Of a stretch of DNA of 64,000 bases, positions 24,955 through 47,900 are shown one piece after another (position 1 is the stretch's first letter; the number at the start of each line of letters is the position of its first letter). The stretch spans positions 58,936-122,935 of the forward strand of contig JASGKY010000036.1 in assembly GCA_049840435.1 (NCBI GenBank), read 5' to 3'. Made by a program: the position numbers and the translations under genes. Below the pieces are notes generated by a model. It did no database searches. It was not told the DNA's origin and was given only the letters and a program-made list of their open reading frames with translations. This stretch comes from Verrucomicrobiota bacterium (GTDB lineage Bacteria; Verrucomicrobiota; Verrucomicrobiia; Limisphaerales; JADLHS01).

Positions 24955-26832
24955 ATGCTTAAAGGCAATTCATTTTTGGCGGTGGATTTTGGGGCAGGCA
25001 GCCTGAAACTGGCCGAGTTCGAATCGAACGAGGCGGGCGGGCTCGTCCTGAAGCAATACGCCATCAAATCGCTTGGTTTGGAAGGTTCGCAAGAAACCAA
25101 GCGCGAGGCGCTGGTGTTGAAGAAATTGCAGGAAACCATCGCTGAACTGGGGATCAAGGCGAAGGAAATTAACGTCTGTGCGCCGGGCTTCCATGTCTTT
25201 GCCAAATTCGTGAAATTGCCCCCGGTGGATTCGGGCAAAGTTACGCAAATCATCCAATACGAAGCGCAACAAAACGTCCCGTTCCCGCTCGCGGAAGTGG
25301 TTTGGGACTATCAAATTTTGGGCACGACCGCAGGTGGCGAATTGGAAGTGCTTTTGGTCGCGATCAAGTCAGACATTGTCGAAGGATTGTTTCGCACGAC
25401 GGAAGCCGCTGGGTTGCGGTTGGAAATTTGCGATGTTTCGCCAGCAGCGCTGACTAATACGTTCCGCTTCAACTACGGCGAGCTTGAAGATTGCACCATG
25501 CTGCTCGATATCGGGGCCAAGACGAGCAACCTGCTGTTTTTTGAGAAGGGTAAAGTTTTCGCGCGCAGCATCAATCTGGGTGCGAATTCCATCACGCAGG
25601 ACTTCGCCAACGAAGCAAAACTGAAGTTCGATCAGGCAGAAAAGATCAAGATCGACGAAGGGTTTGTGAGCTTGGGCGGTGCGTATGAAGAGCCGGAAAA
25701 CCAGCACCAGGCGGCGATTTCCAAGATCGCGCGTCAGTTCATGACGCGGTTACATATCCAGGTTAACCAGACGCTTCAATTTTATCGCGGGCAACAGGGT
25801 GGCTCTGCTCCGCAGCGGTTGTTCCTCGCGGGTGGGGCGGCGATTATGCCCTACACGGCGCAATTTTTCGCAGAAAAACTCAATGTGCCGGTGGAATATT
25901 TCAATCCGTTCCGCAGCGTGCAGATTGATCCAGGGGTAAATCTCGAAGAGCTGTCAAAAGCGGCCCACTCGTTGGGTGAAGTGGTGGGGCTTGGGCTGCG
26001 CAACATGGCCAACTGTCCAGTGGAGTTGAATCTCATGCCGGAGAGCACGCTCCGTTGGCAGAGTTTCAACCAGAAGAAGCCCTATTTCATCGCCACGCTG
26101 GCAAGTCTGGCGTTGATGGCATTGGCGGTGGGATTCTTGTTCAATAATCTCAGCAGCATCAAAAAGGAAAAGCTGACTGAGTTGCAGCCGAAATTGGAAG
26201 AGTTGCGGCGGAAGGATCAAAACTTCAAGCGCGAGTATTCCACCTTGAAGAAAACCATGGAGCATTCCACCCAGTATTCTGACTGGTTGGCGGAGCGGGC
26301 TCAGTGGGCTGAGGTTTTGCGCGAAGTGCGTCAAGCGTTGATCCGCACCGAAGAAATTACCAAGAGCGAGTTTGGCACGGATACAGGGGTTTGGGTGGAG
26401 CGGATTGTGGCTTATTCCCAATTGGGCACTCCGACCGCTGGCGCATTGGGTGCAGCGCCCGCCATGACGCCCGCTGTGAATCCTGAAATGGATATGGCCA
26501 TGCGGCGGTATATGGATGTTCGTTCTCCGGTGCGGGGGGCGCGCGAGGAGGATGGACGTGCGGCACTTGCGGTGACCGGAGCGACGCCCGATGCCGCGGC
26601 GACCAATTCCGGGACGGTGAAATTGGAGTGTCGGGCCGTCAATATGCGCGAGTTTAATGCCGCTGCCAACCAGCGCATCGTGTTTGAATTCCACAAGCAA
26701 CTAGCCAGCACCAACAGTCCGTTGGTGGATGCCGAAACTACGCGGCTGGACCCTGAAATCGTGGAAGACCCTAATACGGGTACTTTCAGCTTTGGCATCA
26801 CCCTCGCCCTCAAGCGTCCTTTGAAACTGTAA
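24955..26832 (+). CDS. pilM: Type IV pilus / T2SS assembly protein PilM fused to a PilN-like domain
   Basis: AVDFGAGSLKL, EAQQNVPFPL, LLDIGAKTS and LFLAGG actin-like motifs, then the ELNLMP (PilN INLLP-like) motif, a TM and a coiled coil. Confidence 0.9.
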   Translation: MLKGNSFLAVDFGAGSLKLAEFESNEAGGLVLKQYAIKSLGLEGSQETKREALVLKKLQETIAELGIKAKEINVCAPGFHVFAKFVKLPPVDSGKVTQIIQYEAQQNVPFPLAEVVWDYQILGTTAGGELEVLLVAIKSDIVEGLFRTTEAAGLRLEICDVSPAALTNTFRFNYGELEDCTMLLDIGAKTSNLLFFEKGKVFARSINLGANSITQDFANEAKLKFDQAEKIKIDEGFVSLGGAYEEPENQHQAAISKIARQFMTRLHIQVNQTLQFYRGQQGGSAPQRLFLAGGAAIMPYTAQFFAEKLNVPVEYFNPFRSVQIDPGVNLEELSKAAHSLGEVVGLGLRNMANCPVELNLMPESTLRWQSFNQKKPYFIATLASLALMALAVGFLFNNLSSIKKEKLTELQPKLEELRRKDQNFKREYSTLKKTMEHSTQYSDWLAERAQWAEVLREVRQALIRTEEITKSEFGTDTGVWVERIVAYSQLGTPTAGALGAAPAMTPAVNPEMDMAMRRYMDVRSPVRGAREEDGRAALAVTGATPDAAATNSGTVKLECRAVNMREFNAAANQRIVFEFHKQLASTNSPLVDAETTRLDPEIVEDPNTGTFSFGITLALKRPLKL

Positions 26833-26833
26833 C

Positions 26834-27925
26834 ATGGACTGGATCAAACGAAATCTCATATTTGTCATCGGCGGCGTGGTCACGCTGTTGTTGATGGGTT
26901 TGGCCGGTTGGTATTGTTATTCCGGATGGACCAATAACGCCCAGCAAAAGGATGAAATTGCCAAGGCATACGAAGAGTTGAACACCTTGTATTCTGCCAA
27001 GCCCTCGCCGGGAGATGGTCGGAAGGTGGATAATATCAAGCTGGCCAAAGAGCAGCAAAAAGAGGCGGAGGAATTTCTGCAGGCCTTGGGCCGCTATTTG
27101 CAGGAGATTCCCGCAATCCCCGCCCTCAGCAACGTTTCAGGGCCGAGATTTTCTGCGGCTTTGCAAGAAACCATCACGCAACTGCAGCGGGAAGCGACCA
27201 ATAGCAGCGTTATCATTCCGCCGGGATATAAATTCTCCTTTGGCAAGCAAGCGACCTTGGTCACCTTTGCGCCGGGTAGTCTTGATCCGTTGGCGGTGCA
27301 GCTTGGGGAAGTGCGTGCGATTTGCGATGTCTTGAATCAGGCCAAGGTTAATTCCTTGGATGGCATCCGGCGGGAGCGCGTGCCGGGGAATCCGGATGAC
27401 TTGTCCGGTACGGCGGCGGATTATCTTGATCTTGCCTCAACCACCAATGAGTTGGCGGTAATCAGTCCATACGAAATAACTTTCCATTGCTTCACCCCGG
27501 AACTGGCTGCTGTGTTGGCTGGATTCGCGCAATCACCGTACGGCTTGATGGTCAAAGCAATTAATGTGGAGCCGGCGATGGCGATGGTGGCAGATGCGGC
27601 TGCGGCGCCGGTTTACGCTGCGCCAGTGGCTGCGCCAGCCTATGTTCCCCCGGCATACGCTGGGCAACGTCCGCCGGGGCGACCGGGTAGGGAGGAAGGC
27701 GGGGGGATTCCGAGTCGGTATGCGGGTGCGGGCGGGGCTTCGCCTTATGGAACGCCATCTCCGTATGGCAATCCCAATCCTTATGGGGTGGCACAACCGG
27801 CGGGGCAACCGGTTGCTTATGCGACTGCGCCAGCCAAGTCCGGATTGCAAACGTTTCTGAAGGAAAAGCAATTGAAAGTCACGTTGCTGCTCCATGTGAT
27901 CAAGCTCCTCCCTCCTCAAAAGTAA
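26834..27925 (+). CDS. PilO-like protein (Amuc_1100-like)
   Basis: N-terminal TM, coiled coil, YKFSF..., RRER motif and a Pro/Ala/Gly/Tyr-rich insert. Lies after pilM in the operon. Confidence 0.65.
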   Translation: MDWIKRNLIFVIGGVVTLLLMGLAGWYCYSGWTNNAQQKDEIAKAYEELNTLYSAKPSPGDGRKVDNIKLAKEQQKEAEEFLQALGRYLQEIPAIPALSNVSGPRFSAALQETITQLQREATNSSVIIPPGYKFSFGKQATLVTFAPGSLDPLAVQLGEVRAICDVLNQAKVNSLDGIRRERVPGNPDDLSGTAADYLDLASTTNELAVISPYEITFHCFTPELAAVLAGFAQSPYGLMVKAINVEPAMAMVADAAAAPVYAAPVAAPAYVPPAYAGQRPPGRPGREEGGGIPSRYAGAGGASPYGTPSPYGNPNPYGVAQPAGQPVAYATAPAKSGLQTFLKEKQLKVTLLLHVIKLLPPQK

Positions 27926-27929
27926 CGGC

Positions 27930-28721
27930 ATGGACTTACTCAAGAAACATTACGAAAAAATCATCCTGGGTGGGGTGTTGCTGGTGCTCGCGGTGGGTGC
28001 GGCGATGTTGCCGATGCAGATTAGCAGCGAGCGCGACGAGTTAAAGCAGAAGGAAAACGATATCGTCAAACAGGGAGGAAAGGCCTTAGAGCCGCTTAAT
28101 TTTGCCACTCAACAAGTGGCGGTTGTGCAGCTGCGTCAGGCTGCGCAATTAGATTTGTCCACCACCAACAAGGTGTTGAATCCATTGCTCTGGCAAAAAT
28201 CGCCGGAAGGAAAGTTGATCAAGTTTTCTACAGGTGAAGAAGCTGGTCCCAAAGCGCTGGTGGTTACCAAGCTTGTCCCACTACACCTCAATATTTCTTT
28301 GGATGGAGTTAACACCTCCGAAGCGACCCCTCGTTACACTGTCAGTGTTGAGCGTGAGGCGGCAGCAGATCGCACCAAGCGGACTAAGAAGCCATATTTC
28401 GCAAGCCTCAACAACAAGAACGAAGTTTTCACAGTGCGGGAAGCCAGCGGTCCAGTTGATGATCCGGTACTCAAGCTGGAGCTGGCTGACGGCGGTGAAA
28501 TTATCGAGGTCAGTAAAGCGAAGCCTTTCAAGCGCGTGGATGGTTACATGGTGGACCTCAAGTATTCCTTGGAGAGTCGCCCGCCGTGGACGGCGCAACG
28601 AGTGGGGGCCGCGCTCAAGTTCGGAGGCGAGGACTACATTATCGTTGCGATTACAAAGAACGAGGTTGTAGTCTTGGCCAAATCGAACCAAAAGAAAACA
28701 CCAGTGCCGATCCAGCTCTGA
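27930..28721 (+). CDS. Pilus/secretin-operon protein (PilP/GspC position, Amuc_1099-like)
   Basis: KKHYEKIILG N-terminal TM anchor. C-terminal ...GEDYIIVAITKNEVVV beta domain. Confidence 0.6.
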   Translation: MDLLKKHYEKIILGGVLLVLAVGAAMLPMQISSERDELKQKENDIVKQGGKALEPLNFATQQVAVVQLRQAAQLDLSTTNKVLNPLLWQKSPEGKLIKFSTGEEAGPKALVVTKLVPLHLNISLDGVNTSEATPRYTVSVEREAAADRTKRTKKPYFASLNNKNEVFTVREASGPVDDPVLKLELADGGEIIEVSKAKPFKRVDGYMVDLKYSLESRPPWTAQRVGAALKFGGEDYIIVAITKNEVVVLAKSNQKKTPVPIQL

Positions 28722-28778
28722 AAGCTGGCGGTTGAATTTCCCAAAAATATTTAGCAGTAAAGCAACAGAAGTCATCCC

Positions 28779-30479
28779 ATGACAAAAGCAGCAGCATCTC
28801 ACGTTCTCGCCATCCTTCTCGCGACCGCGCTCGCCGCTCCCGCCCAAAGCGGGGGTTCGGTCGACACCGGCGTGGCGATCGAAACCGCCGTTCGCCGTGA
28901 CGCCAACAAAATTTTGTTGCGCCAGAAACTTACCGAAGCAGGCGAGGCTTTGGCCCGGCGTGATTTGAACGGGGCCGCCAAAATTTACGATTCGGCGGTG
29001 GAATTAGTCGGACAGATCGGCGCCAACAATTGTGAGCTTGAAGCCGAGCAGGCGGTGCGTGGTTTCTCCGGGGTGCGATTGCAGCTGGCGGAGAATGCGC
29101 GTAAGCGTGGCGACTATCGTGAGGTAAACGTCCAGCTGAACCGCGTTTTGAAGGTGGATCCGAAAAATCCCACGGCCTTGGCCGCCAAAGCCGCCAATGA
29201 CAAGACACTAAAGGAATTGGCAGGCTTTATTCCCAGCAAAGACGCCCTAGACGAAGCCGCGAAAGCCAAGGTTACAAAAACCGATGCGAACACTCATGTG
29301 CAGAATGCCCGGGTGCTTCTTGAGGCAGGCAAGTTGGACGAAGCGGATTTGGAATTGAACCAAGCACTGCAAAAGGATCCTCAAAACCGTCCCGCGCTGC
29401 GTTACAAAGATCTGGTTAGGAATCAGCGCTACCAAATGAGCCGGTCGCGTCAGGATCAGGACAACAATGCAAAGATTTTGCAAGTGGTGGATGCCTATGC
29501 AGATTCACGGGCCCGCGAATCATTGCCAGTCCCGAATCCCTACAACCGCTCGGATGCCATTAATACGGGCAAAGGCCGGCAGGCAATTTTCAACAAATTA
29601 AACACCATCAAGTTTGAGTCGTTCCCGCCGGAGGGTTCGCCGGATACGTTGCCTCTTACGGAAGTAGTGCGTATTTTGAATGTGGAATCGCCAAAGCGTG
29701 ATCCTGAAAAGGAAGGTGTCAACATCATGATCAATCCGAACGCGCCAGCGGCTCCCCAGCCGACAGCGCCGTTGATTGATCCAGCCACGGGACTTCCAAT
29801 CGCCGCACCGCAGGCTACTGAAGCTGTCGATGTCGGCGGGATTAACATCAAGTTTGGCATCCCATTACGTCGCGTCACCTTAAACCAGGTTTTGGATGCG
29901 ATCAGTAAGGTGGCCGAACGCCCGTTGAAAGTTTCCTACGAGGAGTATGCGATTTTTGTTTCCATGAAGGGTCAGGAGCTAACGCCGCTGTTTACCCGCG
30001 AGTACGACATTGATCCCAATACCTTTTATCAAGGCCTGGTTGGAGTGGGCGGTGAATTCTTGGACATCCAATCCTCCAGTAGTGGGGGCGGTGGGGGCGG
30101 CGGTGGCGGCGGTAATGGTCAGGGTTCTTCTTTCGTCATTCCGCGAGTCAGTGTTACTGGCATCAGTGGCGGGCAGGGTGGTCAGGGCGGTGGTCAGGGC
30201 GGCGGGCAACAGGCGGGTGGCGGTATTCCTGGCATCACCCGGACCAATAACATGGAGGCGATTTCTGCTGCTGCTCGATTGTTCTTCTTTAACTTGGGCA
30301 TCAATCTGGATATCGCCCAAGGTAAGAGCGTATTCTTCAATGACCGCAAAGGTATCCTGCTTGTGCGTGCTACCATGGAAGAACTCGATTTGATTGAGCA
30401 GGTCATTCGGGTGTTGAACGTGGCGCACTCCTCAGGTCAACATCAAAACCAAATTCACGGAAATCTCTCAAAACGATAA
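28779..30479 (+). CDS. Secretin, N-terminal part (TPR repeats plus N domains); frameshift near 30427
   Basis: Signal peptide, TPR-like repeats, Gly-rich loop and FFNDRKGILLVRAT N3 domain. The shifted frame reads PQVNIKTKFTEI...LGFDWY. Confidence 0.8.
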   Translation: MTKAAASHVLAILLATALAAPAQSGGSVDTGVAIETAVRRDANKILLRQKLTEAGEALARRDLNGAAKIYDSAVELVGQIGANNCELEAEQAVRGFSGVRLQLAENARKRGDYREVNVQLNRVLKVDPKNPTALAAKAANDKTLKELAGFIPSKDALDEAAKAKVTKTDANTHVQNARVLLEAGKLDEADLELNQALQKDPQNRPALRYKDLVRNQRYQMSRSRQDQDNNAKILQVVDAYADSRARESLPVPNPYNRSDAINTGKGRQAIFNKLNTIKFESFPPEGSPDTLPLTEVVRILNVESPKRDPEKEGVNIMINPNAPAAPQPTAPLIDPATGLPIAAPQATEAVDVGGINIKFGIPLRRVTLNQVLDAISKVAERPLKVSYEEYAIFVSMKGQELTPLFTREYDIDPNTFYQGLVGVGGEFLDIQSSSSGGGGGGGGGGNGQGSSFVIPRVSVTGISGGQGGQGGGQGGGQQAGGGIPGITRTNNMEAISAAARLFFFNLGINLDIAQGKSVFFNDRKGILLVRATMEELDLIEQVIRVLNVAHSSGQHQNQIHGNLSKR

Positions 30480-30504
30480 TAAAGCACTCGGCTTTGACTG
30501 GTAT

Positions 30505-31434
30505 TTGGGGAATATGGTGATTGGTGGTAAGTCCATTGCTTCTGGGGGCACGCAACCCAGCTTCAGCGGGGCTCCATCCACGGGCAATCCGGAAGGCACG
30601 TTCCCGGGAAGTGCGAACGGAGGAACGACGACCGGATCTTCAGCATCAGATGGTCTGCTCACTGGGGGCTTGCGCAACACGTTCGGAAAGGATGGAACAT
30701 CTGTTCCCGCCTTGGGCACATTTACTGGTATCCTGACGGATCCGCAATTCCGGGTGGTCTTGCGCGCGATTGAGCAACGCGATGGTATTGATCTGCTGAA
30801 CGAAGGCCAAGTCACCACCTTGAGTGGCCGACAGGCGCAAATCCAAGTTTCCGAAGTGAAGACCATCGTTACGGGTGTCGAACAAAATTCTGGTCAGGGT
30901 GGCACAACATCTTCCGCGGGTGATAATACATTGTTGCAGCAGACGGCGACGTTCCAGACGCCGAATACTGCTCCAGTGCCGCTCGGTCCGGTGATCGACG
31001 TGTTACCAACGGTTTCCTCGGATGGTTATACGATTCAGATGACCATCATTCCCACGCTGACGGAATTTGTGGGTTACGATTTGCAGACAGCGGCCATTTT
31101 CGTGCCGACTGCGATCACGGCCACCGGTCAAACCTTGGCGGGAACGCTGCCGTTGCCGATTTTCCGGGTGCGGCAGTTGACCACTTGCTGCAGCGTCTGG
31201 GACGGTCAGACCATTGTTCTTGGTGGATTGATTTCAGACAGCGTCACCAAGCAGAAGGATAAGGTGCCGGTGCTCGCTGATCTGCCGTTCGTCGGCAAAT
31301 TGTTTACGAGTGAATCATCCCAGACCCAGAAGAAGAATCTGGTGATTTTTGTCACGCCGCGGATCATTGATCCAGCGGGTAATCCGGCCCATACGGATGA
31401 GGAAATGCCGTTTGCACAACAGGCCCGGAAATAG
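30505..31434 (+). CDS. Secretin (PilQ/GspD family), C-terminal barrel
   Basis: VTTLSGRQAQI, VWDGQTIVLGGLI, DKVPVLADLPFVGKLF and NLVIFVTPRII motifs. Confidence 0.92.
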   Translation: MGNMVIGGKSIASGGTQPSFSGAPSTGNPEGTFPGSANGGTTTGSSASDGLLTGGLRNTFGKDGTSVPALGTFTGILTDPQFRVVLRAIEQRDGIDLLNEGQVTTLSGRQAQIQVSEVKTIVTGVEQNSGQGGTTSSAGDNTLLQQTATFQTPNTAPVPLGPVIDVLPTVSSDGYTIQMTIIPTLTEFVGYDLQTAAIFVPTAITATGQTLAGTLPLPIFRVRQLTTCCSVWDGQTIVLGGLISDSVTKQKDKVPVLADLPFVGKLFTSESSQTQKKNLVIFVTPRIIDPAGNPAHTDEEMPFAQQARK

Positions 31435-31531
31435 TTGTGACCCGGCAATTATTGTTTAAGCGTGTTGCTGCCAAGATTGCCTGGGAGTTGGTGTCAGTGG
31501 GGTTGTGGCGCAGTGAGGTGGAAGGATTGAA

Positions 31532-32413
31532 ATGCCGCGCCTCTTGATAGTTGATGGTCACGCGTATGCCTACCGGGCGTTTTACGCGATACGTTCTTTG
31601 AATTCGCCGACAGGGCGACCGACGAATGCCATTTATGGATTTGTCAAGATGCTGGCCAAGATGCGGGCCGCGGTTACGCCTAGCCACTTGATTGTGGTTT
31701 GGGATGGTGGCCTGAGTGAGCAGCGCCGAGCGGAGTTGCCAGGTTATAAGGCGCAGCGACCGGAAATGCCGCCAGATTTGGCGGTGCAGCTGGATGAGAT
31801 TGGCCGGTATTTAGAGGCTGCAGGCATTGCTAGCTATACCGGTGCGGGTGTGGAGGCTGATGATTATATCGCTTTCACCGCCCAGAACGCAGTGCAGCTT
31901 GGTTGGGAAGTGGTGATTGCCAGCGCTGATAAAGATTTCATGCAGTTGGTTGCACCGGGAGTCGGATTGCTGAATCCGAATGACAAATCAGAAACGATTT
32001 GGACGGCGGAGCAAGTTCGGGCCAAGACTGGAGTGCAACCAGGGCAGATTGTAGATTGGTTGAGCTTGTTAGGTGACAGCGTAGATAATATTCCAGGTGT
32101 GCCTGGAGTAGGGACAAAGACCGCGACGAAGTTGTTGGAACAGTTTGGTTCGGTAGATGCGATATATGCACGATTGGACGAGGTGCAGCCGGAGCGAATC
32201 CGGGAATCGTTACGCGGGGCGGCGGCAGACGTGCGTCGCAATCAGGGGTTGGTGCGATTAAAGCCCGAAGTGGGGCAAAATTTTACCGCTGAGGCATTGG
32301 TGAGCCGGGCGGCGGATTTGGGGCGGTTAGCGGAATTATTCCGCGATTGGGGTTTTCGTTCGTTGCTGGCCGAGGTGCAGGCAGAGACCCGGCACCAGCC
32401 AGAACTGATTTAA
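31532..32413 (+). CDS. Stand-alone 5'-3' exonuclease / flap endonuclease (Pol I N-domain-like)
   Basis: VDGHAYAYRAFY, YKAQR, EADD, DKDFMQL and GDSVDNIPGVPGVGTKTA motifs. No polymerase domain. Confidence 0.92.
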   Translation: MPRLLIVDGHAYAYRAFYAIRSLNSPTGRPTNAIYGFVKMLAKMRAAVTPSHLIVVWDGGLSEQRRAELPGYKAQRPEMPPDLAVQLDEIGRYLEAAGIASYTGAGVEADDYIAFTAQNAVQLGWEVVIASADKDFMQLVAPGVGLLNPNDKSETIWTAEQVRAKTGVQPGQIVDWLSLLGDSVDNIPGVPGVGTKTATKLLEQFGSVDAIYARLDEVQPERIRESLRGAAADVRRNQGLVRLKPEVGQNFTAEALVSRAADLGRLAELFRDWGFRSLLAEVQAETRHQPELI

Positions 32414-32509
32414 GAAGTAGAGAAATGTTGTGAAGACAAAGAAACCAGCGACAAGCCTGAGGTGGCGCAAAGGAAATCTAGGGCGGTGGATCGCAGGTTT
32501 TGGCGAAGC

Positions 32510-34405
32510 ATGAAAAACCTTATGGCATTTTCGTATTTGTTGCGGTGGCGGACTTTGATTCCGAGCCTTGTGGCATTGACCCTTCCGGTCCTTGCCTCCG
32601 GGCAGGGCAACTATGTTGTCGAGGGCGGGGAATATAAAGTTACAGGGACCTTGGTGGGCGATCAGGTTGATGCCAAGCTGAGTATCAAGACGTCGGGTGG
32701 CTATCTAGTCTGGCGTGACAATATCACGGATGGGGATGGCTATGGGATCAGTGCGCGCAAGTTGGATGGCAGCTTGACCGGGGTCATGAGCACCTTCCGG
32801 GTGAATCAGGTTGGGGAGAATGATCAGGAAAATCCCCAGGTTGCCCTGTTGAATTCTGGCGGCGCCGTGTTTGTGTGGCAGGGCGGTGCGCAGGGCTTTC
32901 AGCATATCTACGGTCGGGTTCTTTCTTTGGACGGCACTTGGCTGACTGGGGACATTGCCGTAAGCACCACCACCAATGTGAATCAGTTGAACGCGGCGGT
33001 GGCAACGCTGACGAATGGCAATACGGTCGTGATCTGGTCGAGTTACAACCAAGCCTCCGCCAACAGCATGCAGGATGTCTATGCGCAAATCCTGACACCA
33101 GCAGGGACGAAGTACGGCGGCGAAACATTGCTGAATCAGACCACGGCGTATAACCAAAAATCAGCAGTGATCGCTCCATTGAGTGATGGCCGTTATGTGG
33201 TGGTTTGGATTTCCGAACAGCAACGGTTTGAGAATAGTGTGGATGTTTACGGGCGCATTTTTACCGCACTGGGAGCTCCGGCTACGGCAGAGTTTTTGAT
33301 TAATGCTGGCACCAATGTGTGCTCCAACCCGACGGTGGCCGCCTCAGCCGACGGTGGCTTTGCGGTCGCGTGGACCGAAATTAATTTGGATATTCCGGCG
33401 GATCGTTGGGATGTCTGGGCGCGGCCTTTTTCGAGCACCGCAGTTGGCGGCACTATCCGGCGGGTCAATACTTACACGGTCGGCGATCAGGTTGGTCCTA
33501 AACTCAGTTCGTTGGGGACGGATTACTCCGTGGTGTGGACCAGCGTCGGACAAGACGGTTCGCGCGAGGGGATTTATGCTCAGTTTCTCCGAGGGGATGG
33601 GACGAAGGTTGGCGATGAATTGCGAGTCAACACTTCGACCATTAGTCAGCAGATGTACCCGGCGGTCGCTTCCGATGGGGTGTCCCGCTTCATGGCGGTC
33701 TGGTCGGGGTATGTCGGGGGTAGTGCTAGTCTCGATCTGTTCGCACAAAGATACGTCAATACCAATCAGCCGTTGAACGCGCCCGGCGCCCCGATTGTTA
33801 GTGTGTTGGATTCAACGCGCTTGGCTTTGACGTGGCCGGGAGTTTCCGGATTTACGATTTCCAATTATGAAGTCTATGCGGATGGTGCGGCGTCAGCCAC
33901 CAGCGTCACGACCAATACGTTCTGGACGATGACGGGTTTGAGTGCTGGCAGCACTCACAGTTTCCGGTTGGCTTATGTGTTGGCGGATGGCCGACGTTCA
34001 CCACTTTCCTCCTCCGCCACGGGGAGCACCTATATTTATCCCTTCACTCATGGGGGAATTCCGTATGATTGGATGTTCCAGATGTGGGGAAGTGAAACCG
34101 CCACTTGGCCGGCAGCGCTGGCTGATACGGATGGCGATGGGATTTCCAATTTGCAGGAATTCCTGCAAGGCACAAACCCCAAGGATGCCAGCAGTGCCCT
34201 GCGGTATAAATTACGGCCGACGGCACAGGGCGTTTTCTTGGATTGGAACACGCAGCCTGGTTTGATGTACCAAGTTCAAGTTTCTCCGCTGGCTGGGGGA
34301 AGCTGGGTGGATTTGGGAGGGCCGCGCTTTGCGGCGGGTACCAATGATTCCTTGTATGTTGGTGGTAGTAACAGTGGATTCTACCGGATTGGTCGCGTTC
34401 GTTAA
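32510..34405 (+). CDS. Exported protein: propeller-type repeats, FN3 domain, Ca-binding DxDGDG motif and shared C-terminal domain
   Basis: Signal peptide. About 6 repeats of (F/L)xVNxxTxxxQxxPxVA...VVW. FN3 (LTWP...YEVY...GLSAGSTHSFRL). DTDGDGISNLQEFLQGTNP. Ends GFYRIGRVR. Confidence 0.85.
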   Translation: MKNLMAFSYLLRWRTLIPSLVALTLPVLASGQGNYVVEGGEYKVTGTLVGDQVDAKLSIKTSGGYLVWRDNITDGDGYGISARKLDGSLTGVMSTFRVNQVGENDQENPQVALLNSGGAVFVWQGGAQGFQHIYGRVLSLDGTWLTGDIAVSTTTNVNQLNAAVATLTNGNTVVIWSSYNQASANSMQDVYAQILTPAGTKYGGETLLNQTTAYNQKSAVIAPLSDGRYVVVWISEQQRFENSVDVYGRIFTALGAPATAEFLINAGTNVCSNPTVAASADGGFAVAWTEINLDIPADRWDVWARPFSSTAVGGTIRRVNTYTVGDQVGPKLSSLGTDYSVVWTSVGQDGSREGIYAQFLRGDGTKVGDELRVNTSTISQQMYPAVASDGVSRFMAVWSGYVGGSASLDLFAQRYVNTNQPLNAPGAPIVSVLDSTRLALTWPGVSGFTISNYEVYADGAASATSVTTNTFWTMTGLSAGSTHSFRLAYVLADGRRSPLSSSATGSTYIYPFTHGGIPYDWMFQMWGSETATWPAALADTDGDGISNLQEFLQGTNPKDASSALRYKLRPTAQGVFLDWNTQPGLMYQVQVSPLAGGSWVDLGGPRFAAGTNDSLYVGGSNSGFYRIGRVR

Positions 34406-36738: not shown

Positions 36739-36769
36739 TCGCATGACTACTCTACTTAAATTTCGTATT

Positions 36770-39816: not shown

Positions 39817-42800
39817 ATGAAGATTCGCTTGTCAGTAATCACTGGCATCGCCACAGCGATGGCGACCACAAACCTTGTTACTGCTGCGGTGGCTCCGCCG
39901 CATTCAGTGCTGCCCAACTTGGACAGCCGGAAGTCCTTCACCAACACGACTGCGGCAGTGCGCTTGCAGACCGCCACGGCATCGGCGGCGTTGCTGAGCA
40001 CGCAGGTCAGTGGCGTTCGCTTCCAGCCTGACACCCGGACGGGGGGGGCACGGTTTCTGGCCGCGCAGCGCGGTTTCCTGACCGGCGTGGGCGGCAACGG
40101 AAAAGGATTGAGTGCTGCGGGTTTGAATGCCTTACCCCTCAGTGATCCCTATCGAGTGGTCAAGGCTTTCGCCAACGAGCACGCTGCGGTCTTTGGTCAC
40201 GATGCCTTACCTCTCAATGCCGCTCAGGTCAAAGTGGACGCGATTACTGCCCGCAATGGCATGCGGACGGTCATCTGGCAGCAACGGCAGGATGACATCC
40301 CCGTTTATGGCGCTTTGTTTGTCAGCCATCTGACGAAGAATGAGGAGTTGGTTTCTGTTTCGTCGCGATTTGTCTCCGATCTATCCCACTCCGCTTCGCT
40401 TGTGCCCGGGCGGGCTTCACTGGTGAGCAATCCCCCACTCAACGCGACTGCCGCCACGCGTCGGGCCGCTCTGGATCTTGGGGAAACGAACGCCTTGATT
40501 CAATTGACCCAAGAAATGTCCCCTGCTGGGGCGGAGCAGAAGCAGAGTTTTCTGTCTCCTCGGTTGAACGGTGAGACCTACGCGCAATTGGTCTGGCTGC
40601 CGTTGCAAGATGACTCCCTGCAATTGTGCTGGCAGGTGATTTTAACCAGCAAAGCGCGCCCGGAGATGTACCTGACCCTGGTCAATGCCCAGAATGGCAA
40701 CGTCCTGTTGCGGCGTTGTCTGACGGCTTATGCTACCCCGGCGACATTCAATGTTTATACCAGTGACAGTCCCTCGCCGTTTTCGCCCGGCCTGAATACG
40801 CCTTCTAATTTCCAGCCGCCTGTGGTGTCGCGAACCTCGGTCACGCTGACGGCCTTGAATAACACCGCTTCGCCAAATGGCTGGATCAATGATGGCGGCA
40901 ATCAAACGGTGGGTAATAACGTAGACGCCCATCTGGATCGGAACGATGACGACTTGCCTGATATGCCGCGTCCGCAGGGCAGTCCTAATCGTGTTTTTGA
41001 TTTTCCTCTCGATTTGGCGCAATCGCCCGGGACGTATGGCAACGCATCCGTGGTAAATCTTTTCTATTGGAACAATTTCGTCCATGACCGGATGTATGAT
41101 TTTGGGTTCACCGAAGCGTTTGGGAATTTCCAGACGACCAATTTTAATCGAGGTGGGGCGGGAAATGATGCCGTGTCCGCCGATGGTCAGGATGGGGGCG
41201 GATTTAACAATGCCAATTTTGCCACACCTCCGGATGGGATGCCGGGACGGATGCAGATGTATATTTTTAGCGAATCAACTCCTGATCGGGATGGTAGCTT
41301 GGATGCTGAAGTGATGGTCCACGAATACGGTCACGGAATCAGCAATCGTTTGCTTGGCGGCGGCGCTGGAATCAGTGAGTTGCAGACTGCAGGCATGGGG
41401 GAGGGGTGGTCAGATTTTTACGCTCTAAGCCTGTTGAGTGAGGCGACCGATGATCCGCACGCCGTTTATGCGACGGGTGGTTACCTGACCTATCAATTTT
41501 TTGGTCTGGATGCCAACTATTACTTTGGCATTCGGCGCTATCCTTACTGCACCGATTTGAGTAAGAATCCACTCACGTTCAAAGATATTGATCCCACGAA
41601 GGCGTCCACGCATCCGGGGGTGCCGATCAGCCCGATTTTTGGCGGCAGTCAGGCTGAGGAGGTTCACAATCAGGGGGAAGTATGGTGCATGACCTTGTGG
41701 GAGGTGCGGGCCAATTTGATTGATAAGCTCGGGGCGGTGGCGGGCAATCAGACCATGCTGCAATTGGTTACCGATGGCCTGAAGCTCGCTCCAGAAAATG
41801 CCACGTTTATCGAGGCCCGGGACGGAATCTTACTTGCCGATGAAGTTCTGACCGGCGGCGATAACTTGGCGGAACTTTGGTATGGGTTTGCCAAACGCGG
41901 TATGGGATTCAGCGCTTCAGCACCAACTTCGGACACGACTACCGGTGTTACTGAAGCCTATGATGTTCCGGATTATGTGATCACAGGCCCGACGGATGGA
42001 ATTTTAGAAGTCCGCATTACGCCGGCAACGGGGGCGGCTTTGATCGGGAACACTACCAACAGCATTTTTGTCCGGGTCACGGATGGCAAGGCGGTGACGA
42101 ACGCTACGGTGACGGCGAGTTTGAGCACTGGCGGCACCCTCAGCTTTGCCAACAACGGGCAGTTGCCCGATTTGGTTGCTAACGACGCCAATTACACGGG
42201 TAAATTTGTGGTCCCTAATTTATCGACGAATGTTACCTTGACCTTGGTGATCACTGCTCCAGGTAAAGATTCTGCCACTAATCTGATTACGTATGCCATC
42301 GTTCCTCCACCGCCGAATGACTTCTTTACCAATGCCATCAAAGTGCCGGCCGCCGGCAGCAATTACATTACTTTGAACGACACGGCCACCATTGAAAGTG
42401 GCGAGCCGATTCACGCTGGAGTGCAATCCACCGTGGCCTCCTTGTGGTGGACTTACACGCCGACCGCCAACGGCTCGGTGTTGGTGGATACGGCAGGCAG
42501 TCAGGCGGACACGGTTGTGGCCGTTTACACCAACAATACTTTGGCCGGATTGCAAACGGTGGTAGCCACTAACGATGTGGGAAGCCGTCAGCAGGCCTAC
42601 GTCATATTTGCTGCCAAGGCGGGGGTGGCATATCGGATCGCTGTAGCCAGTTATGATGATAACAGCACCGGGACCATTCGCTTGGCGATTGTGCCGGGAG
42701 GGACGCCCGATACCACAGCCCCGAGTGTGACGGTTGCTTCACCAGTCAGCGGGCTGACGGTCACCACCAATCGTGTGACGTTGGTGGTGGTACCGCGATT

Positions 42801-42876
42801 GATCCCGATCCGAACCCCTCTGGCTTGCAACAAGTCAGTATTCGGGTCAGCCAAATTGATGTCGGGGCGGGGGTGA
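39817..42876 (+). CDS. M36 (fungalysin-family) metallopeptidase, N-terminal part (frameshift near 42785)
   Basis: Signal peptide, FTP/PepSY-like propeptide, GFTEAFGNFQ, RDGSLDAEVMVHEYGHGISNRL, GMGEGWSD, GIRRYPY and EVHNQGEVW motifs. Confidence 0.92.
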   Translation: MKIRLSVITGIATAMATTNLVTAAVAPPHSVLPNLDSRKSFTNTTAAVRLQTATASAALLSTQVSGVRFQPDTRTGGARFLAAQRGFLTGVGGNGKGLSAAGLNALPLSDPYRVVKAFANEHAAVFGHDALPLNAAQVKVDAITARNGMRTVIWQQRQDDIPVYGALFVSHLTKNEELVSVSSRFVSDLSHSASLVPGRASLVSNPPLNATAATRRAALDLGETNALIQLTQEMSPAGAEQKQSFLSPRLNGETYAQLVWLPLQDDSLQLCWQVILTSKARPEMYLTLVNAQNGNVLLRRCLTAYATPATFNVYTSDSPSPFSPGLNTPSNFQPPVVSRTSVTLTALNNTASPNGWINDGGNQTVGNNVDAHLDRNDDDLPDMPRPQGSPNRVFDFPLDLAQSPGTYGNASVVNLFYWNNFVHDRMYDFGFTEAFGNFQTTNFNRGGAGNDAVSADGQDGGGFNNANFATPPDGMPGRMQMYIFSESTPDRDGSLDAEVMVHEYGHGISNRLLGGGAGISELQTAGMGEGWSDFYALSLLSEATDDPHAVYATGGYLTYQFFGLDANYYFGIRRYPYCTDLSKNPLTFKDIDPTKASTHPGVPISPIFGGSQAEEVHNQGEVWCMTLWEVRANLIDKLGAVAGNQTMLQLVTDGLKLAPENATFIEARDGILLADEVLTGGDNLAELWYGFAKRGMGFSASAPTSDTTTGVTEAYDVPDYVITGPTDGILEVRITPATGAALIGNTTNSIFVRVTDGKAVTNATVTASLSTGGTLSFANNGQLPDLVANDANYTGKFVVPNLSTNVTLTLVITAPGKDSATNLITYAIVPPPPNDFFTNAIKVPAAGSNYITLNDTATIESGEPIHAGVQSTVASLWWTYTPTANGSVLVDTAGSQADTVVAVYTNNTLAGLQTVVATNDVGSRQQAYVIFAAKAGVAYRIAVASYDDNSTGTIRLAIVPGGTPDTTAPSVTVASPVSGLTVTTNRVTLVVVPRLIPIRTPLACNKSVFGSAKLMSGRG

Positions 42877-44300
42877 TTGCAAATGGCGACAAGGCTTCTT
42901 CCGTGGCTTCTTTGATCAGCACGAATTGGTCTCAAACCGTTGGCTTGTTTCAAGGGGTCAATCAGATTAGCGTCAGCGTCAAGGACGGGGCTGGCAACCA
43001 GTCTTCGGCTATAACTCTGACCGTGACATATCGTCCGTTGGATCCGCCTAATGACTTCTTTGTAAATGCTATCGCGCTTACGGGGAACTCGGGCGTTAGT
43101 TCGGTCAATACGCTGCAGGCCACTAAGGAGCTTAACGAGCCGGTGCATGCCGGCAATGCCGGCGGCAAATCGGCTTGGTGGACTTATCAACCTCCCGCTG
43201 ATGGACAGCTGGTCCTTTCTACCACTAATTCGACCTTCGATACACTGCTGGCGGTTTATACCGGGAGCAGTATGAACACGTTGACGCTGGTTGCCGCCAA
43301 CGACGATGCCGCCAATGGTTCGGGGGGCAGCAGTGCTTTGGCGGTGGCAGTTCGTTCCAATCAGGTCTATCGCATCGCCGTGGATGGCTTTGATGCGGCG
43401 GGCGGCGTCGCTTATCTGCAATACTTACTGACTCCAGGAACGGTATACCGGCTGACAATCGCAACAAACATTGGCGGGGTAGTGCTTCCGGGTACGATGG
43501 ATGTACTGGCGGGGGCAACGGTGCAATTGCTCGCGCAGCCAGCGACCGGATACAGCTTCGATAGCTGGAGCGGCGATGTGGTTTCACTCGCCAATCCGAT
43601 CAATATCGTGATGAGTAAAGATCGTTCTATCGCGGCGCAATTCATCGCCATTCCTCACACCGACGGCTTTGAATCGGGTAATTTCACCGGGTTGGGTTGG
43701 ACGACAGGCGGCAACCTGCCGTGGCTCGTGCAAAGCACCAACGTCGCCGCTGGTTCATTTGCGGCTCGCTCTGGCGCCATTGGGGCCAGTCAGTCCAGTT
43801 CATTGTTCCTGAGCCGGAATTTCCGGGCTGGGCTGGGCAGCTTTGACTTGCGGGTTAGTTCCGAGCCGACGTGGGATGTCTTTGCCTTCTACGTGGATGG
43901 TGTCTTGCAGCAACAATGGTCTGGCGAGCTGGCTTGGACCAGTTTTGCTTTCCCGATCACGGCTGGGACGCATACTTTTGAGTGGCGTTACAGCAAGGAT
44001 GCGAACAATAACACGGGGCTGGATGCGGTCCTGATTGACAACGTCAATTTGCCCGTCGTCATGCCGGTGAATGCTTCCACGCCAGCCAGACTGACGGCCC
44101 GGCGGCAGACGGATGGCCAAGTGTTCTTGGATGTGCAGGGGCAAACCAATCAGCTTTATAACATTCAAATTTCGACCAACCTGGTGAACTGGCAGACTTT
44201 GGCCACGCTCGTGACCGTAAATGGTTCAGGCCATGTGCTCGATCCCGGAAGCCCGACTAACAGCATCCGGTTCTATCGGGCGGCGACGCCGGTTCCTTGA
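42825..44300 (+). CDS. M36 peptidase C-terminal accessory domains plus shared C-terminal domain
   Basis: Second PPNDFFxNAI...EPxHAG...WWTY repeat and Ig-like domains. Ends STNLVNW...LDP...RFYRAATPVP. Confidence 0.8.
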   Translation: MQQVSIRVSQIDVGAGVIANGDKASSVASLISTNWSQTVGLFQGVNQISVSVKDGAGNQSSAITLTVTYRPLDPPNDFFVNAIALTGNSGVSSVNTLQATKELNEPVHAGNAGGKSAWWTYQPPADGQLVLSTTNSTFDTLLAVYTGSSMNTLTLVAANDDAANGSGGSSALAVAVRSNQVYRIAVDGFDAAGGVAYLQYLLTPGTVYRLTIATNIGGVVLPGTMDVLAGATVQLLAQPATGYSFDSWSGDVVSLANPINIVMSKDRSIAAQFIAIPHTDGFESGNFTGLGWTTGGNLPWLVQSTNVAAGSFAARSGAIGASQSSSLFLSRNFRAGLGSFDLRVSSEPTWDVFAFYVDGVLQQQWSGELAWTSFAFPITAGTHTFEWRYSKDANNNTGLDAVLIDNVNLPVVMPVNASTPARLTARRQTDGQVFLDVQGQTNQLYNIQISTNLVNWQTLATLVTVNGSGHVLDPGSPTNSIRFYRAATPVP

Positions 44301-44343
44301 TGATGGCAGGTTTGCTGCCGAGCATGCGGCGAAAAGTTTCCCA

Positions 44344-44928
44344 GTGAAAACCTTCGGTCTGACCGGTGGCATCGGTATGGGAAAATCCACGGCGGCGCAA
44401 TTGTTGCGATCCCGCGGCCTTGCCGTCATTGATACGGACGACCTTGCCCGGCAGGTGGTGCAGCCGGGGCAGCCAGCGCTTGTTGAAATCTGCCAGACGT
44501 TCGGCTCTGAGTTGCAAGATGCTTCCGGCGAGCTGCGTCGTGATGCGCTCGCCAAAATTGTCTTCGCTGACCCCGTTGCGCGCGAGAAGCTCGAAGCCAT
44601 CACGCATCCCCGTATCACTCGACTCTGGCGGGAACAGCTTCAGGCTTGGCGTGCCGAGGGGCGCTCGGTGGCGGTGGTGGTCATCCCGCTCTTGTTTGAA
44701 ACAAAAGTTGAGGCGGAGTTTGATGCCATTATCTGTCTGGCTTGCGCTGCGGCCACGCAACAGCAACGTCTCGCCGCCCGCGGTTGGTCAGGCGATCAAA
44801 TCCAGCAACGCCTCGCTGCGCAATTGCCCGTGGTTGAGAAAATGTCTCGCGCCCATTTCGTGGTCTGGTCTGAGGGAGCGGTCGAGATGCTATCGGCCCA
44901 GTTGACGCGGATTATTCCGGTGGGGTGA
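44344..44928 (+). CDS. coaE: Dephospho-CoA kinase
   Basis: GLTGGIGMGKST, IDTDDLAR, LEAITHP and IPLLFE motifs. Confidence 0.95.
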   Translation: MKTFGLTGGIGMGKSTAAQLLRSRGLAVIDTDDLARQVVQPGQPALVEICQTFGSELQDASGELRRDALAKIVFADPVAREKLEAITHPRITRLWREQLQAWRAEGRSVAVVVIPLLFETKVEAEFDAIICLACAAATQQQRLAARGWSGDQIQQRLAAQLPVVEKMSRAHFVVWSEGAVEMLSAQLTRIIPVG

Positions 44929-44936
44929 AGCAATCG

Positions 44937-47900
44937 TTACGGCTGGGCGGGAGTAATGGCTTTAAAGAAGCGGGCATCCAGAGCGGGGCCGTAATTGGAA
45001 TTTGCACGGTCCGGTTGGTTGTGTCTGCAGTAATGTCCGTGAACTTCAGCCACTCGGTCATGTTGGTGGCATCGCAAAACAGTACGCTGTATGAGTGTCC
45101 CGCAATCGCTTCCAGCTCCAACCAGCAATTGGTCCCGGTCGGAGTGGCAAAAATCTGTAATCGCAACGCACTGGTCGCATCCAACGGGCTGGTGCCGGCC
45201 CAATATTCTTCTCGGTTCGTCATGCCATCCTGATCTGGATCACTGTTGGCATCTGGCGTCGTCCAATCTGTGCCGTTGTCGCGTTCCCATTCGTCCGGCA
45301 AACCGTCGCCATCACTATCCGCGGTCGGAGCGAACCGGCCCGGGGTTATGGCTGCGGCGGTCCAGTTAGTGGGCTCGCTGCTGAATTGCCGGGCTGAGAG
45401 TCGCTGCAACGACGGGCCACTGCCGTCGGCTGCGGTCGGCCAGGGCGATATTCGTCGTTTTGTATCCGACCACTTCGACGGCCACGTAAGGGGTGACTCC
45501 GGCGTTGGGATTATCGGGGGCAGCCAACGTGAGCGATTCCCCCGCGTTATTAAGCGCGCCCAGAATACGGACCGAGGATCTTGTGTGTGTGCCGGCACGT
45601 TGTACTTCGCGCGGAGCAATTCAGATCGAATGGCGACAACCAAGAGCATTTCGGCGGGGTAGAGTTGGAGATTTGGTGGGAAAACGTAACTCAGGCCATC
45701 GATACGCCAGGTGTTGGTGGGGAAATCGGGATGATATAACCGGTGACGATGGTATCGCCGGTGTTCAGCAATTCGATGAATTCATCCTCGGTTGGACTGC
45801 TTGGATGATAATGGATTTCGTTTATGACAATCGGGCCAATCTGCGGCCCGGCATTGGTGGTTCCGAGCGTGACGGCGCGTTGCAGAGGGAACGACTCGAC
45901 GCCCGCACTATTTATCGCGCGGCCAAAACTCCGGCCGTTGAAGACTGCTCCAAAGGCGAAACCATGGCTGTAACCGGTGAGTTCCGCGTTGGTGTTTGCG
46001 GAGGTGAATAGATAAACCTCTTCGCCCGTGGAACTGAAGGCGAACGCAGTGTTGCCTTCCGTCCCAGAAGTTAAACTGGCTGTCGTCAAAAAGTAAAAAT
46101 TCGCCCGCCGGGGTTGCTGCTCCGCCGGGATGCGGTACTTCTTCGGCATTGTCGCATTGTCAGTGAGATACCAGCCGCTTACATCCACGGTCGCATCCGT
46201 AGCGTATGCTGCAATTCGATCGCATCCCGCTGCGGCAGGTCTGTGTGGGTGAGGACTTCATTGATCACGATGGGCGGGATGCTTGGCTCGGGATGATACT
46301 ACGCCTGGCGTGCCGCCGGGTTGGTGATTGCTCGCCACTTGGTGCCGTTATCCGGGGCTGGGGTGAGACCGGGGTGTTTTGCACAGTGGGAGAAGCTCTG
46401 TCAGTCGGGTGTGATTGGCGAAGGCGCTTGGTCATCGTAGGTGAAGGAGAAAACAATGCCGCCAGACGGGAAGTTCAAAGCTCAGGTTTTCACCGCTGTT
46501 ATCCAACTGGCCCGTGTAAGTGGGCGGCCACCGAAATGTCCGGATACTTGGTCTAGTAACCAGTGGCATTGCGTGCCAGCACCAAAAACCCATTGGCGGG
46601 CAGCAGTGTGTTGTTTGAGAAGGTGAATGTGATTCCAGTGCTGAAGGTGAGCCCGGAGAGGTTGAGTGTTGGTGAATTTTTAAATTCGAGGAAGTTCCAA
46701 GATCATTGCCGGCTATGGAGTTCAGCGCTGGCGGATTGTAACATCATGACCTCGGTGATGACCAATTTCGTCAGATCTTGGGGGGGCGTGAAGGTGGCAT
46801 CGGTCAGCGCGCTCCAAGCTGTACCGTTTCTTACCCGAGTGCGGATGCGGGTGGGCTGGGTGATGGTGACAGCGGCTTCATAACTTTGTGCCAATGGGGT
46901 TATGGTGGTCGCCGGTTTGGCGCGGGTAGCTACCGTCTGTGGTGAAATAAATAGCGCCAGCAGTATTGGTGTGCGTCAGCGTGACTTCAAAGCCCGTTGA
47001 AATGTGCCGCCGAGTTGGTTTCGGTTTGGGGCACTTCAAATTGCGGAAACAGATTGTTGGCCCAGGAGTTGGATTCAGCACGATGGCAGCACGGAATAGG
47101 GGAAATAGTTGGTCATCAACCCGTCGCTCGCCGTCCGCCAGTTGTTATAATTGAACGCCGGCTCCTGCTTGGCGTCGCCCCAACGGGCAGATTCGGTGAT
47201 CGACAGGCCCGATCAATCTCTACGCCGGCGCGCCTGGTAGCGATTGCTGATGGCGTTGAACGTCAGCACGCCGGTGTTGAAGAAGTGGCGTTGGATGTGG
47301 TCGCCTACAAGAACACGAAACTCTTCGTTCGCCGAAAGTTGTTGCCAGAGGTATTGCGGGTTGCTTTGGGCAAAAGAGCTGCCTTGGGCTGGATCCCCGG
47401 CTGGGAATGGTCCGGTCCGGTCATCATTGAGATTGTAGAGGGTGTTTTCGGAATCGTGTAATACGAAGCGAAAGCCGCCGTGCTGGCCACTGCGATCACG
47501 CAACCCATACCAATTGTTGATGGATATCCCGGTGGCTGAAATGGGGGCGTCAAAGTTGCCGGTGTAGAGGATCACCAACATGTAATCAATCAAGGCGGGC
47601 ACATCGAGCAAGTTTTCATTAGCCGGGTTTGGCGTACCATCGGGGTTGTTGCCTTGAATTTTCTGGTACACGGCTGCGGTGGTAAAACCACTGGTAGCCG
47701 CCTGCCACAACCGCTGCCACGCCGGCTATAGGGTCCCGTCCGTGGGAATAACCTGATAACCGGAATCCGGGTCCACCTTGATGACATCGAGTAATTGTGG
47801 GCGTTCGCCGCCGAAATAGCTCGCGCCAAAGCTTGCTTCGGGGCGTTCTTGAGTGTTGAACAAGACCCCAATATTGGCCATTGAGATAGAGATGGTAAAA

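Follow-up and report, generated by a model that had tools for sequence, protein, structure and literature searches.

What holds in place, or directs, the exported proteins encoded behind a secretin operon of a Verrucomicrobiota bacterium? In the window analysed here, a stretch of 64,000 nucleotides (contig JASGKY010000036.1, positions 58,936 to 122,935) from a soil/freshwater bacterium with a Limisphaerales/Pedosphaera-type genome of 6.01 Mb and an estimated completeness of 82.9%, four proteins of otherwise different architecture end in the same domain of about 70 residues, here called the tail domain. The original prediction regarded this tail as a possible sorting signal for the adjacent machine, supposedly derived from a type II secretion system (T2SS) or type IV pilus (T4P). 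We identified the four tails as copies of a beta-sandwich of about 60-70 residues that is absent from the family catalogues, resembles fibronectin type III (FN3) domains and occurs in genomes of the Limisphaerales/Pedosphaera type (subdivision 3) as well as in many other lineages of the phylum. The operon, judged from homology and distribution, is a phylum-wide homologue and not the dedicated machine of the tail domain. As for the role of the tail, we considered docking or retention, a sorting signal and an accessory module, and we favour docking or retention.

All four tails were recovered at the predicted positions (34193-34405, 39495-39737 and 44082-44300 on the plus strand, 44937-45175 on the minus strand). 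A hidden Markov model (HMM) built from the three intact tails matched 45 further frames in the source genome at E≤1e-3, and five rounds of iteration on this genome raised the number to 162 copies in 148 open frames. In 126 of these 148 carriers a copy ends within 10 residues of the stop codon. Terminal copies usually close with RFYR[VLAI]-x-x-x-Pro; the chain ends 3-4 residues past the R-F-Y-R-[VLAI] strand in 93 of the 126, and Pro is the last residue in 84, as against 8.7% of background frames. Internal copies carry the same x-x-Pro, so that this element corresponds to the domain boundary, at which the protein simply stops. The 22 carriers without a terminal copy comprise 8 truncated matches and 14 frames in which a full-length copy stands internally or at the N-terminus, for instance ahead of FGE-sulfatase-like (NLVWIP.G...MGSP) or LamG-like regions (C24:260378-261499, C13:154328-155533, C2:108229-111408 and C25:183446-187834 of the source genome). 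The tail family is therefore not exclusively terminal: of the expectation that HMM matches would be strictly C-terminal, a strong bias is what remains. The D-x-D-x-D-G motif (TSP3-type), correctly noted earlier before three of the four window tails, is found within 80 residues upstream of 15 of 123 terminal copies, compared with 0.42% of background windows. Individual copies share only about 20-40% identity, and conservation is concentrated in core-type residues and the RFYR strand. In genomes like the source genome, about 2-3% of open frames end in the tail domain. Its carriers include proteases, LTD/CotH proteins, pyrroloquinoline quinone (PQQ) sugar dehydrogenases, glycan enzymes and giant adhesin-like proteins.

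The positional preference is not confined to this genome. Among 1.84 billion public proteins, the tail profile matched 69,078 representatives at E≤1e-3. The best 150 matches were all tandem arrays of 2-20 copies, which reflects a score bias, and in 128 of them the last copy ends at the C-terminus. A further sample of 120 carriers, in which this bias was smaller, contained 107 with a single copy and 116 with a terminal one. Of 21 relatives, all but one gave matches to the domain, 38-150 in each; the exception, genome G020, which belongs to the same order and is 94% complete, had none. In an even sample of the phylum, the domain was found in 79 of 201 genomes. For a PQQ-dehydrogenase carrier, the orthologue matches in tail-free genomes (34-42% identity) were too partial to be interpreted.

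We examined whether the carriers are exported using those 93 members of the 120-carrier sample that start with Met and are at least 400 residues long. A signal-like N-terminus was present in 63 of the 93, compared with 0-8 of 93 internal control segments. This control replaced an earlier signal-peptide heuristic, which was dropped as it flagged 569 of 1356 control frames. The idea that every carrier has a signal peptide thus held for most of the sample and not for all of it.

The structure of the tail was predicted with AlphaFold2 on an alignment of 23 tails. The model is a confident, small beta-sandwich (predicted local distance difference test score, pLDDT, 95.1), in agreement with the domain-like nature first assumed. 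DSSP assigned six strands of at least 3 residues, where FN3 has seven (A, B, C, C', E, F and G). Comparison with 48,161 chains using VIA-align gave Z-scores of 6-8 to many FN3 or FN3-like domains over 62-72 of the 72 residues, including 8wm1 (Z 8.2), the CtXyl5A module 5g56 (Z 7.8) and the Clostridium thermocellum Fn3-like domain 3mpc (Z 7.1, 25% identity), with root-mean-square deviations of 2.5-2.7 Å over 68-69 residues for the latter two. In single-domain FN3 targets, 14-17 C-terminal residues were left unaligned. Taking this into account together with the six predicted strands, the tail seems in the model to be an FN3-like sandwich that ends after strand F. Foldseek gave no PDB match at E≤1e-3, with TM-scores of 0.6-0.68 to cytokine-receptor FN3 domains. 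Among the best 50 VIA-align matches there was no chain of a C-terminal domain (CTD) of type IX secretion systems (T9SS), to which a likeness is still possible.

The catalogues did not name the domain. None of the 23 tails matched a Pfam model at a meaningful E-value, and none matched fn3 (PF00041) even at E≤1; no NCBIfam model matched the three window tails, and the nearest 30 Atlas clusters were all unnamed. The only significant, though marginal, sequence match of the profile in the PDB was to discoidin/CBM32 domains (2rv9_A and 4zxe_A, E 1.2e-4, 60 residues), and Pfam F5_F8_type_C_2 reached E 0.03 with 15 bits, under its cut-off of 27.8. In the titles and abstract openings returned by full-text searches, we found no paper describing the tail domain. 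Of the outcome named beforehand as speaking against the idea, a known FN3/Ig repeat without positional bias, the FN3-like fold was seen; Pfam fn3 gave no match, and the C-terminal bias is strong. The tail family is a large, C-terminus-locked, FN3-like and uncatalogued module on exported proteins.

Several of the genes in the window are broken, and we corrected their models by comparison over 14 loci from genomes of the same order. Tail protein 1 (32462..34405, plus strand, 647 aa) consists of a signal peptide, a repeat region, an FN3 domain, the TSP3 motif and the tail; its likely start is the ATG at 32510 (MKNLMAF...). Frames 36728-38311 and 38238-39737 form one gene for tail protein 2 (36728..39737, plus strand, about 1000 aa, the 1004-aa tail gene), with a frameshift in the overlap 38238-38311, a tail match of E 3.7e-12 and a signal peptide in the frame starting at 36728; relatives have single frames of 974-1035 aa. 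Likewise, tail protein 3 (39817..44300, plus strand) is encoded by a single gene made up of frame 39817-42876 and the frame that is open over 42663-44300; it is an M36 (fungalysin) metallopeptidase of about 1490 aa (Pfam Peptidase_M36, E 1.5e-111) with a frameshift in 42663-42876. Its orthologues are single frames of 1228-1507 aa, and the intact P0178, P0186 and P0189 (1493-1496 aa) carry M36, Flg_new_2 and the tail. The signal-like N-termini earlier ascribed to all four proteins are accordingly found at the true 5' ends; 38238-39737 and 42825-44300 are 3' parts, the signals of which lie at 36728 and 39817.

The fourth carrier, an LTD/CotH-type exported protein (44937..49326, minus strand; LTD E 1.2e-15, signal-like N-terminus), is in at least six frame pieces with at least five frameshifts. 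Its tail is real and is split over two frames, one of which covers model positions 5-46 (11.9 bits) while the other ends in ...ARFFKAITPAQP-stop. Once the models are corrected, a signal-peptide-like sequence opens each of the four tail genes as well as the 773-aa gene described below. Three frameshifts thus fall within 19 kb (secretin, 1004-aa tail gene and M36 gene), and the housekeeping gene glgB (49650-52110) is likewise in several frames. As relatives have single frames and a housekeeping gene is also affected, many frame breaks in the window, those of the "broken" LTD/CotH gene among them, may be assembly indel errors and not real pseudogenes. Such errors may also account in part for the completeness estimate of the genome.

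We then examined the operon. Its first gene encodes a PilM-like protein homologous to Amuc_1101 (24955..26832, plus strand, 625 aa; Pfam PilM_2 E 1.2e-40, NCBIfam Amuc_1101_fam E 3.3e-146), followed on the same strand by a gene for an Amuc_1100-family pilus-like protein (26834..27925, 363 aa; NF038287 E 2.6e-19), which occupies the same place in the cluster across relatives. The third gene (27930..28721, plus strand, 263 aa) stands at the Amuc_1099 position with a weak NCBIfam match (E 0.096), and this position is conserved in 14 of 14 same-order loci. The fourth encodes a TPR-secretin homologous to Amuc_1098 (28779..31434, plus strand) in two frames, 28779-30479 and 30505-31434. Against NF042912, the N-terminal piece reaches E 2.4e-36 and the C-terminal piece 6.9e-47, and Pfam Secretin gives E 3.5e-31. 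All 10 relatives that offer enough sequence encode the secretin in one frame of 905-1083 aa, and the window copy has one extra base near 30424 when compared with that of genome G012. The four NCBIfam models (NF042912, NF042425, NF038287 and NF045709) were matched in cluster order, with scores below the curated equivalog cut-offs (488.6 of 650 bits for Amuc_1101, 69.8 of 180 for Amuc_1100, 12.2 of 50 for Amuc_1099 and 125 plus 160 of 750 for Amuc_1098), so that the genes should be regarded as homologues and not as equivalogs. By these profile matches, the pilM-Amuc_1100-Amuc_1099-secretin operon is homologous to Amuc_1098-1101, the pili-like cluster of Akkermansia. Genes for PilB/GspE, PilC or pilins were not present in the window.

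If the tail were addressed to this machine, as originally predicted, operon and domain should co-occur. The Amuc_1101-type PilM marker was found in 178 of the 201 sampled genomes. Leaving out the source genome, 68 of 200 genomes had both marker and domain, 109 the marker only, 10 the domain only and 13 neither, which gives an odds ratio of 0.81 and a Fisher p of 0.66, a value that is only a guide as kin are not independent. The two are therefore distributed independently, the outcome that had been named beforehand as speaking against the link. Whole families carry the operon without the domain (32/32 against 0/32 in f25 and 17/17 against 0/17 in f32), and in family f30 all five genomes have the domain and none has such a PilM. 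In genus g14, the operon is present in 16 of 16 genomes and the domain in one, with a marginal match; the PilM homologues of this genus mostly pass the Amuc_1101 equivalog cut-off, from which g14 is presumably Akkermansia. Genome G020, which lacks the domain, retains the whole operon with a secretin of 1083 aa. Since Secretin domains gave 3-9 matches in each of the 10 genomes tested (5 loci in the source genome), the secretin family as such is uninformative; a secretin exit route for tail proteins is possible but would not be specific. Apart from this, PilM proteins 61-79% identical to that of the window were found in several public metagenome-assembled genome (MAG) records titled "uncultured Bifidobacterium sp.", "Bifidobacteriaceae bacterium" and, in one case, "Dongiaceae" (L055, L061, L063, L069 and others), titles which look mislabelled.

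The gene order around the operon gave a consistent result. Within the order, the array pilM-1100-1099-secretin-exonuclease-tail1-g750-tail2-M36/tail3 is conserved, and all eight loci of at least 14 kb, from 5 families, have 1-3 tail genes downstream of the operon; the remaining six same-order loci (10.2 kb or less) were too short to judge. Outside the order, the downstream side was fetched for 20 domain-positive genomes from 19 families, with 15 of the 20 loci spanning the full 20 kb, and no locus had a tail gene downstream of the operon. The pilM...secretin pair itself was present in 19 of the 20, the other locus being only 3.9 kb long, and in 9 of the 20 the exonuclease gene directly follows the secretin. 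The linkage of operon and tail genes is order-specific, in a conserved array that also holds unrelated housekeeping genes, and concerns only 3 of about 126 tail genes. In the window, the three tail genes are indeed co-oriented downstream of the operon as had been stated; they do not follow it directly, as a 5'-3' exonuclease gene comes first (31532..32413, plus strand; housekeeping, unrelated; Pfam 5_3_exonuc_N E 8.9e-47) and a gene for a 773-aa exported protein lies among them (34417..36738, plus strand). This protein has a signal-like N-terminus and a He_PIG Ig-like end (Pfam E 5.4e-13, residues 705-771), and gave no tail-HMM match. Phyletic pattern, the G020 control and synteny inside and outside the order led us to reject the secretin operon as the dedicated machine of the tail domain. 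As a separate observation, genome G018 has an exosortase gene (C8:15494-16240) about 3.5 kb upstream of its pilM operon (C8:19807-21633) on the same strand, an arrangement not present in the window.

What, then, may the tail do? The explanation to which we tentatively give the most weight is that it acts as a C-terminal handle for retention or docking at the surface on Sec-exported proteins, distinct from the machine of the neighbouring operon. In such a process, the N-terminal signal peptide would take the protein over the inner membrane, as suggested by sequence features, and the outer membrane would be crossed by a general route, possibly but not specifically a type II-like secretin pathway. 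The folded C-terminal module, still uncleaved, would then be the shared handle by which these proteins dock or are retained at the cell surface or in the matrix, and the three tail genes behind the operon would represent a group of cargo genes, specific to the order, within a conserved array that includes housekeeping genes. Docking or retention is favoured over a translocation signal because the domain forms tandem arrays of 2-20 copies that still reach the C-terminus, and because 14 frames carry internal copies. The place of the domain in its carriers, which in homologues is taken by known sorting tags (detailed below), speaks for an anchoring role as well, and none of the 37 PEP-CTERM frames of the source genome contains the domain. 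Several points weigh against this putative function. The location and processing of the tail proteins are predicted from sequence, and no binding partner of the domain was identified. A docking module needs no lock to the chain end, and a processed sorting signal would explain the strong positional bias no less well. All tested genomes have several secretins, so that tail proteins may still leave by a route of the secretin type, and the tail-gene block is kept behind the operon in 8 of 8 loci within the order, which would allow a functional tie for these particular proteins. In addition, with no more than 29 candidates per genome scored in the phylum search, some of the genomes counted as free of the domain may be misses.

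A second explanation, which we consider doubtful though worth keeping in mind, is that the tail is an ordinary accessory module, a spacer or of the carbohydrate-binding type, with no role in sorting or retention, its end position resulting from the mode in which modules are added. An FN3-like fold is common to accessory modules of glycoside hydrolases such as 5g56 and 3mpc, the marginal similarity to the chitosan-binding discoidin/CBM32 modules (F5_F8_type_C_2 included) points in the same direction, and tandem arrays and internal copies would be expected. On the other hand, no such positional lock is found for accessory FN3 or CBM modules, the carriers (proteases, dehydrogenases and adhesin-like giants) have no substrate in common, and core-type residues and the RFYR strand are conserved even though the copies are so divergent.

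It is unlikely, in our estimation slightly more so than an accessory role, that the tail is a true C-terminal sorting signal, similar to the T9SS CTD, for a dedicated outer-membrane translocon or sortase-like enzyme, and perhaps removed or exchanged for an anchor. The position-locked end in this genome and in both public samples, the chain that stops exactly at the domain boundary, more than 100 unrelated cargo proteins per genome and the signal peptides of the carriers all agree with such a signal. So does the place that the domain takes in its carriers. The window M36 protein matches NCBIfam families of T9SS-, myxosortase- and rhombosortase-dependent M36 peptidases, indicating that in other lineages the M36 enzyme ends in a lineage-specific sorting tag; by this comparison, the tail domain fills the slot of known sorting tags in homologues. 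Among 38 carriers of the 120-carrier sample that were scanned, none matched a known C-terminal sorting model; a choice-of-anchor GloVer repeat was above cut-off in 3, and a likeness to the PEP-CTERM protein ScyF was seen in 2. Nor do the tail and PEP-CTERM, the signal of a sorting route that is, as stated earlier, represented in the window, occur in one frame (0 of the 37 PEP-CTERM frames of the source genome). However, known folded sorting domains are not used as arrays or internal modules, both of which are found here, and no T9SS type A tail model matched in the genome. No candidate machine was found either: the pil operon does not co-vary with the domain, and M36 is present in only 5 of 201 genomes. 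We had considered the M36 protease as a PorU-like part of the machine, and this low frequency led us to reject it; M36 is regarded as cargo.

We regard as improbable, although it provides a lead, that the tail is the handle of an undescribed surface-display system of Verrucomicrobia dependent on an exosortase/PEP-CTERM envelope layer. An FN3-like sandwich that stops after strand F would leave an open edge strand (R-F-Y-R-V), which could attach to an exosortase-dependent polysaccharide or to scaffold proteins anchored by PEP-CTERM, either through non-covalent docking or through strand addition; if this were true, each cell would keep more than 100 different exoproteins on its surface in this way. 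Exosortase (PF09721) was found in 143 of 201 genomes of the phylum, and its distribution nests that of the domain: both were present in 76 genomes, exosortase only in 66, the domain only in 2 and neither in 56 (odds ratio 32), so that exosortase occurs in 76 of 78 domain-bearing and 66 of 122 domain-free genomes. One of the two domain-bearing genomes without exosortase has a marginal domain match. G020, which is domain-free, has no exosortase match, and four other genomes of the order have one. A control marker, COX1, was also associated with the domain (46, 21, 32 and 101 genomes in the same order, odds ratio 6.9). Lineage and lifestyle alone can thus give strong associations, and the exosortase nesting is a lead and not a finding. 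The COX1 search also turned up a match in G090 (C3:14026-15366) with 10 in-frame TGA codons, and a second copy on another contig of this genome, which consists of three contigs, has none; the TGA-rich copy could stem from a contaminant that recodes TGA or from an organelle-like contig.

The source genome contains 37 PEP-CTERM (PF07589) and 3 exosortase matches. Two of the PEP-CTERM matches are in the window, in small exported proteins at 436-513 (minus strand) and 13544-13612 (plus strand; G000:C36:59371-59448 and 72479-72547). Seven of the 37 lie within 1.5 kb of tail genes compared with 4.4 expected, a number reached by 70 of 500 shuffles and not significant. We also asked whether the small PEP-CTERM proteins could be one cohesin-like family, a candidate that was rejected as the 37 frames fell into 24 clusters with at most 5 members and no single candidate emerged.

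That the tail guides its cargo to the secretin/PilM machine next to it, an exporter of the Amuc_1098 type derived from T2SS/T4P, is very improbable, since against the short gaps, the shared orientation and the arrangement kept in 8 of 8 judgeable same-order loci from 5 families stand a marker present in 177 of 200 genomes with 109 of these domain-free, domain-bearing genomes without it, the cases of g14 and G020, the absence of downstream tail genes in 20 out-of-order loci, the unrelated exonuclease gene within the same array, the location of only 3 of some 126 tail genes here and the broken secretin frame of the source assembly.

The remainder of the window adds context. The operon, the exonuclease gene and five exported-protein frames up to 44300 form a tight co-directional array on the plus strand, followed by coaE (dephospho-CoA kinase). 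Other neighbours are genes for a xanthine dehydrogenase, a permease, a response regulator and RNase HII, and glycogen genes. Promoter and terminator scans of 26000-45500 gave counts no higher than the shuffle level. Elsewhere, two genes for ECF-type sigma factors (5632-6183 and 8513-9067, both minus strand) adjoin large frames of 595-662 aa without a Pfam match (3687-5615, 6268-8052 and 9568-11553, minus strand), with which they could form sigma/anti-sigma modules.

Verrucomicrobia are major degraders of polysaccharides in soil, freshwater and the sea, and the tail domain is the most obvious handle for studying how their exoenzymes and adhesins are placed on or beyond the outer membrane. Its profile would better annotate thousands of "hypothetical" proteins. 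As the domain is distributed independently of the Amuc_1098-1101 cluster, a candidate machine that was attractive but wrong drops out, and the exosortase-dependent envelope is the first lead elsewhere.

Among known systems, the type A CTD of the T9SS in Bacteroidota (TIGR04183/PF18962) is similar to the tail in being a folded beta-sandwich of about 70 residues at the extreme C-terminus, and in its presence on many unrelated exported proteins with signal peptides, with dozens to more than 100 carriers per genome. In contrast, neither the three window tails nor the full proteins match such a model in NCBIfam, nor do the 23 tails in Pfam (TIGR04183 had no match genome-wide, with 13 candidates scored); the tail also occurs in tandem arrays and sometimes internally, and a machine and cleavage are known for the T9SS side only. 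SprA (TIGR04189) had no match in the 82.9%-complete genome but likewise none in any control genome, and so lacked a positive control. The best structural matches are FN3 or Fn3-like accessory modules from extracellular enzymes of bacteria, such as 3mpc and the module in 5g56, and the L-x-W, Y-x-V and tyrosine-corner-like motifs of the tail look like those of FN3; the tail differs in being shorter, locked in position at the C-terminus and without a Pfam fn3 match. Discoidin/CBM32 domains (F5/8 type C; DD1/DD2 of a Paenibacillus chitosanase, 2rv9 and 4zxe) share the pattern L-x-W ... Y-x-[IV]-Q-x-S ... W ... R-[FY]-x-R-V, but they are jelly-rolls of about 135 residues of which the tail spans only the central strands, and the fold search places FN3 first.

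Dockerins of cellulosomal enzymes are small, uncleaved and nearly always C-terminal modules that dock many secreted enzymes to a surface scaffold. The likeness, an analogy only, extends to the calcium-type D-x-D-x-D-G motif that precedes 15 of 123 tails. A dockerin is a pair of EF-hands, unlike the beta-sandwich of the tail, no tail had a Pfam dockerin match, and we know of no cohesin-like partner for the tail domain. The Amuc_1098-Amuc_1102 cluster of Akkermansia muciniphila resembles the operon in the window in gene order and in the match to all four NCBIfam families; the window genes differ in scoring under the equivalog cut-offs and in their broken secretin frame, and the genus that passes the Amuc_1101 cut-off lacks the tail domain except for one marginal match in 16 genomes. 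The PEP-CTERM/exosortase system, finally, is a C-terminal sorting system in the same genome, and 76 of the 78 tail-bearing genomes have an exosortase, but its signal combines a short motif and a transmembrane helix, unlike the tail, which is folded and soluble.

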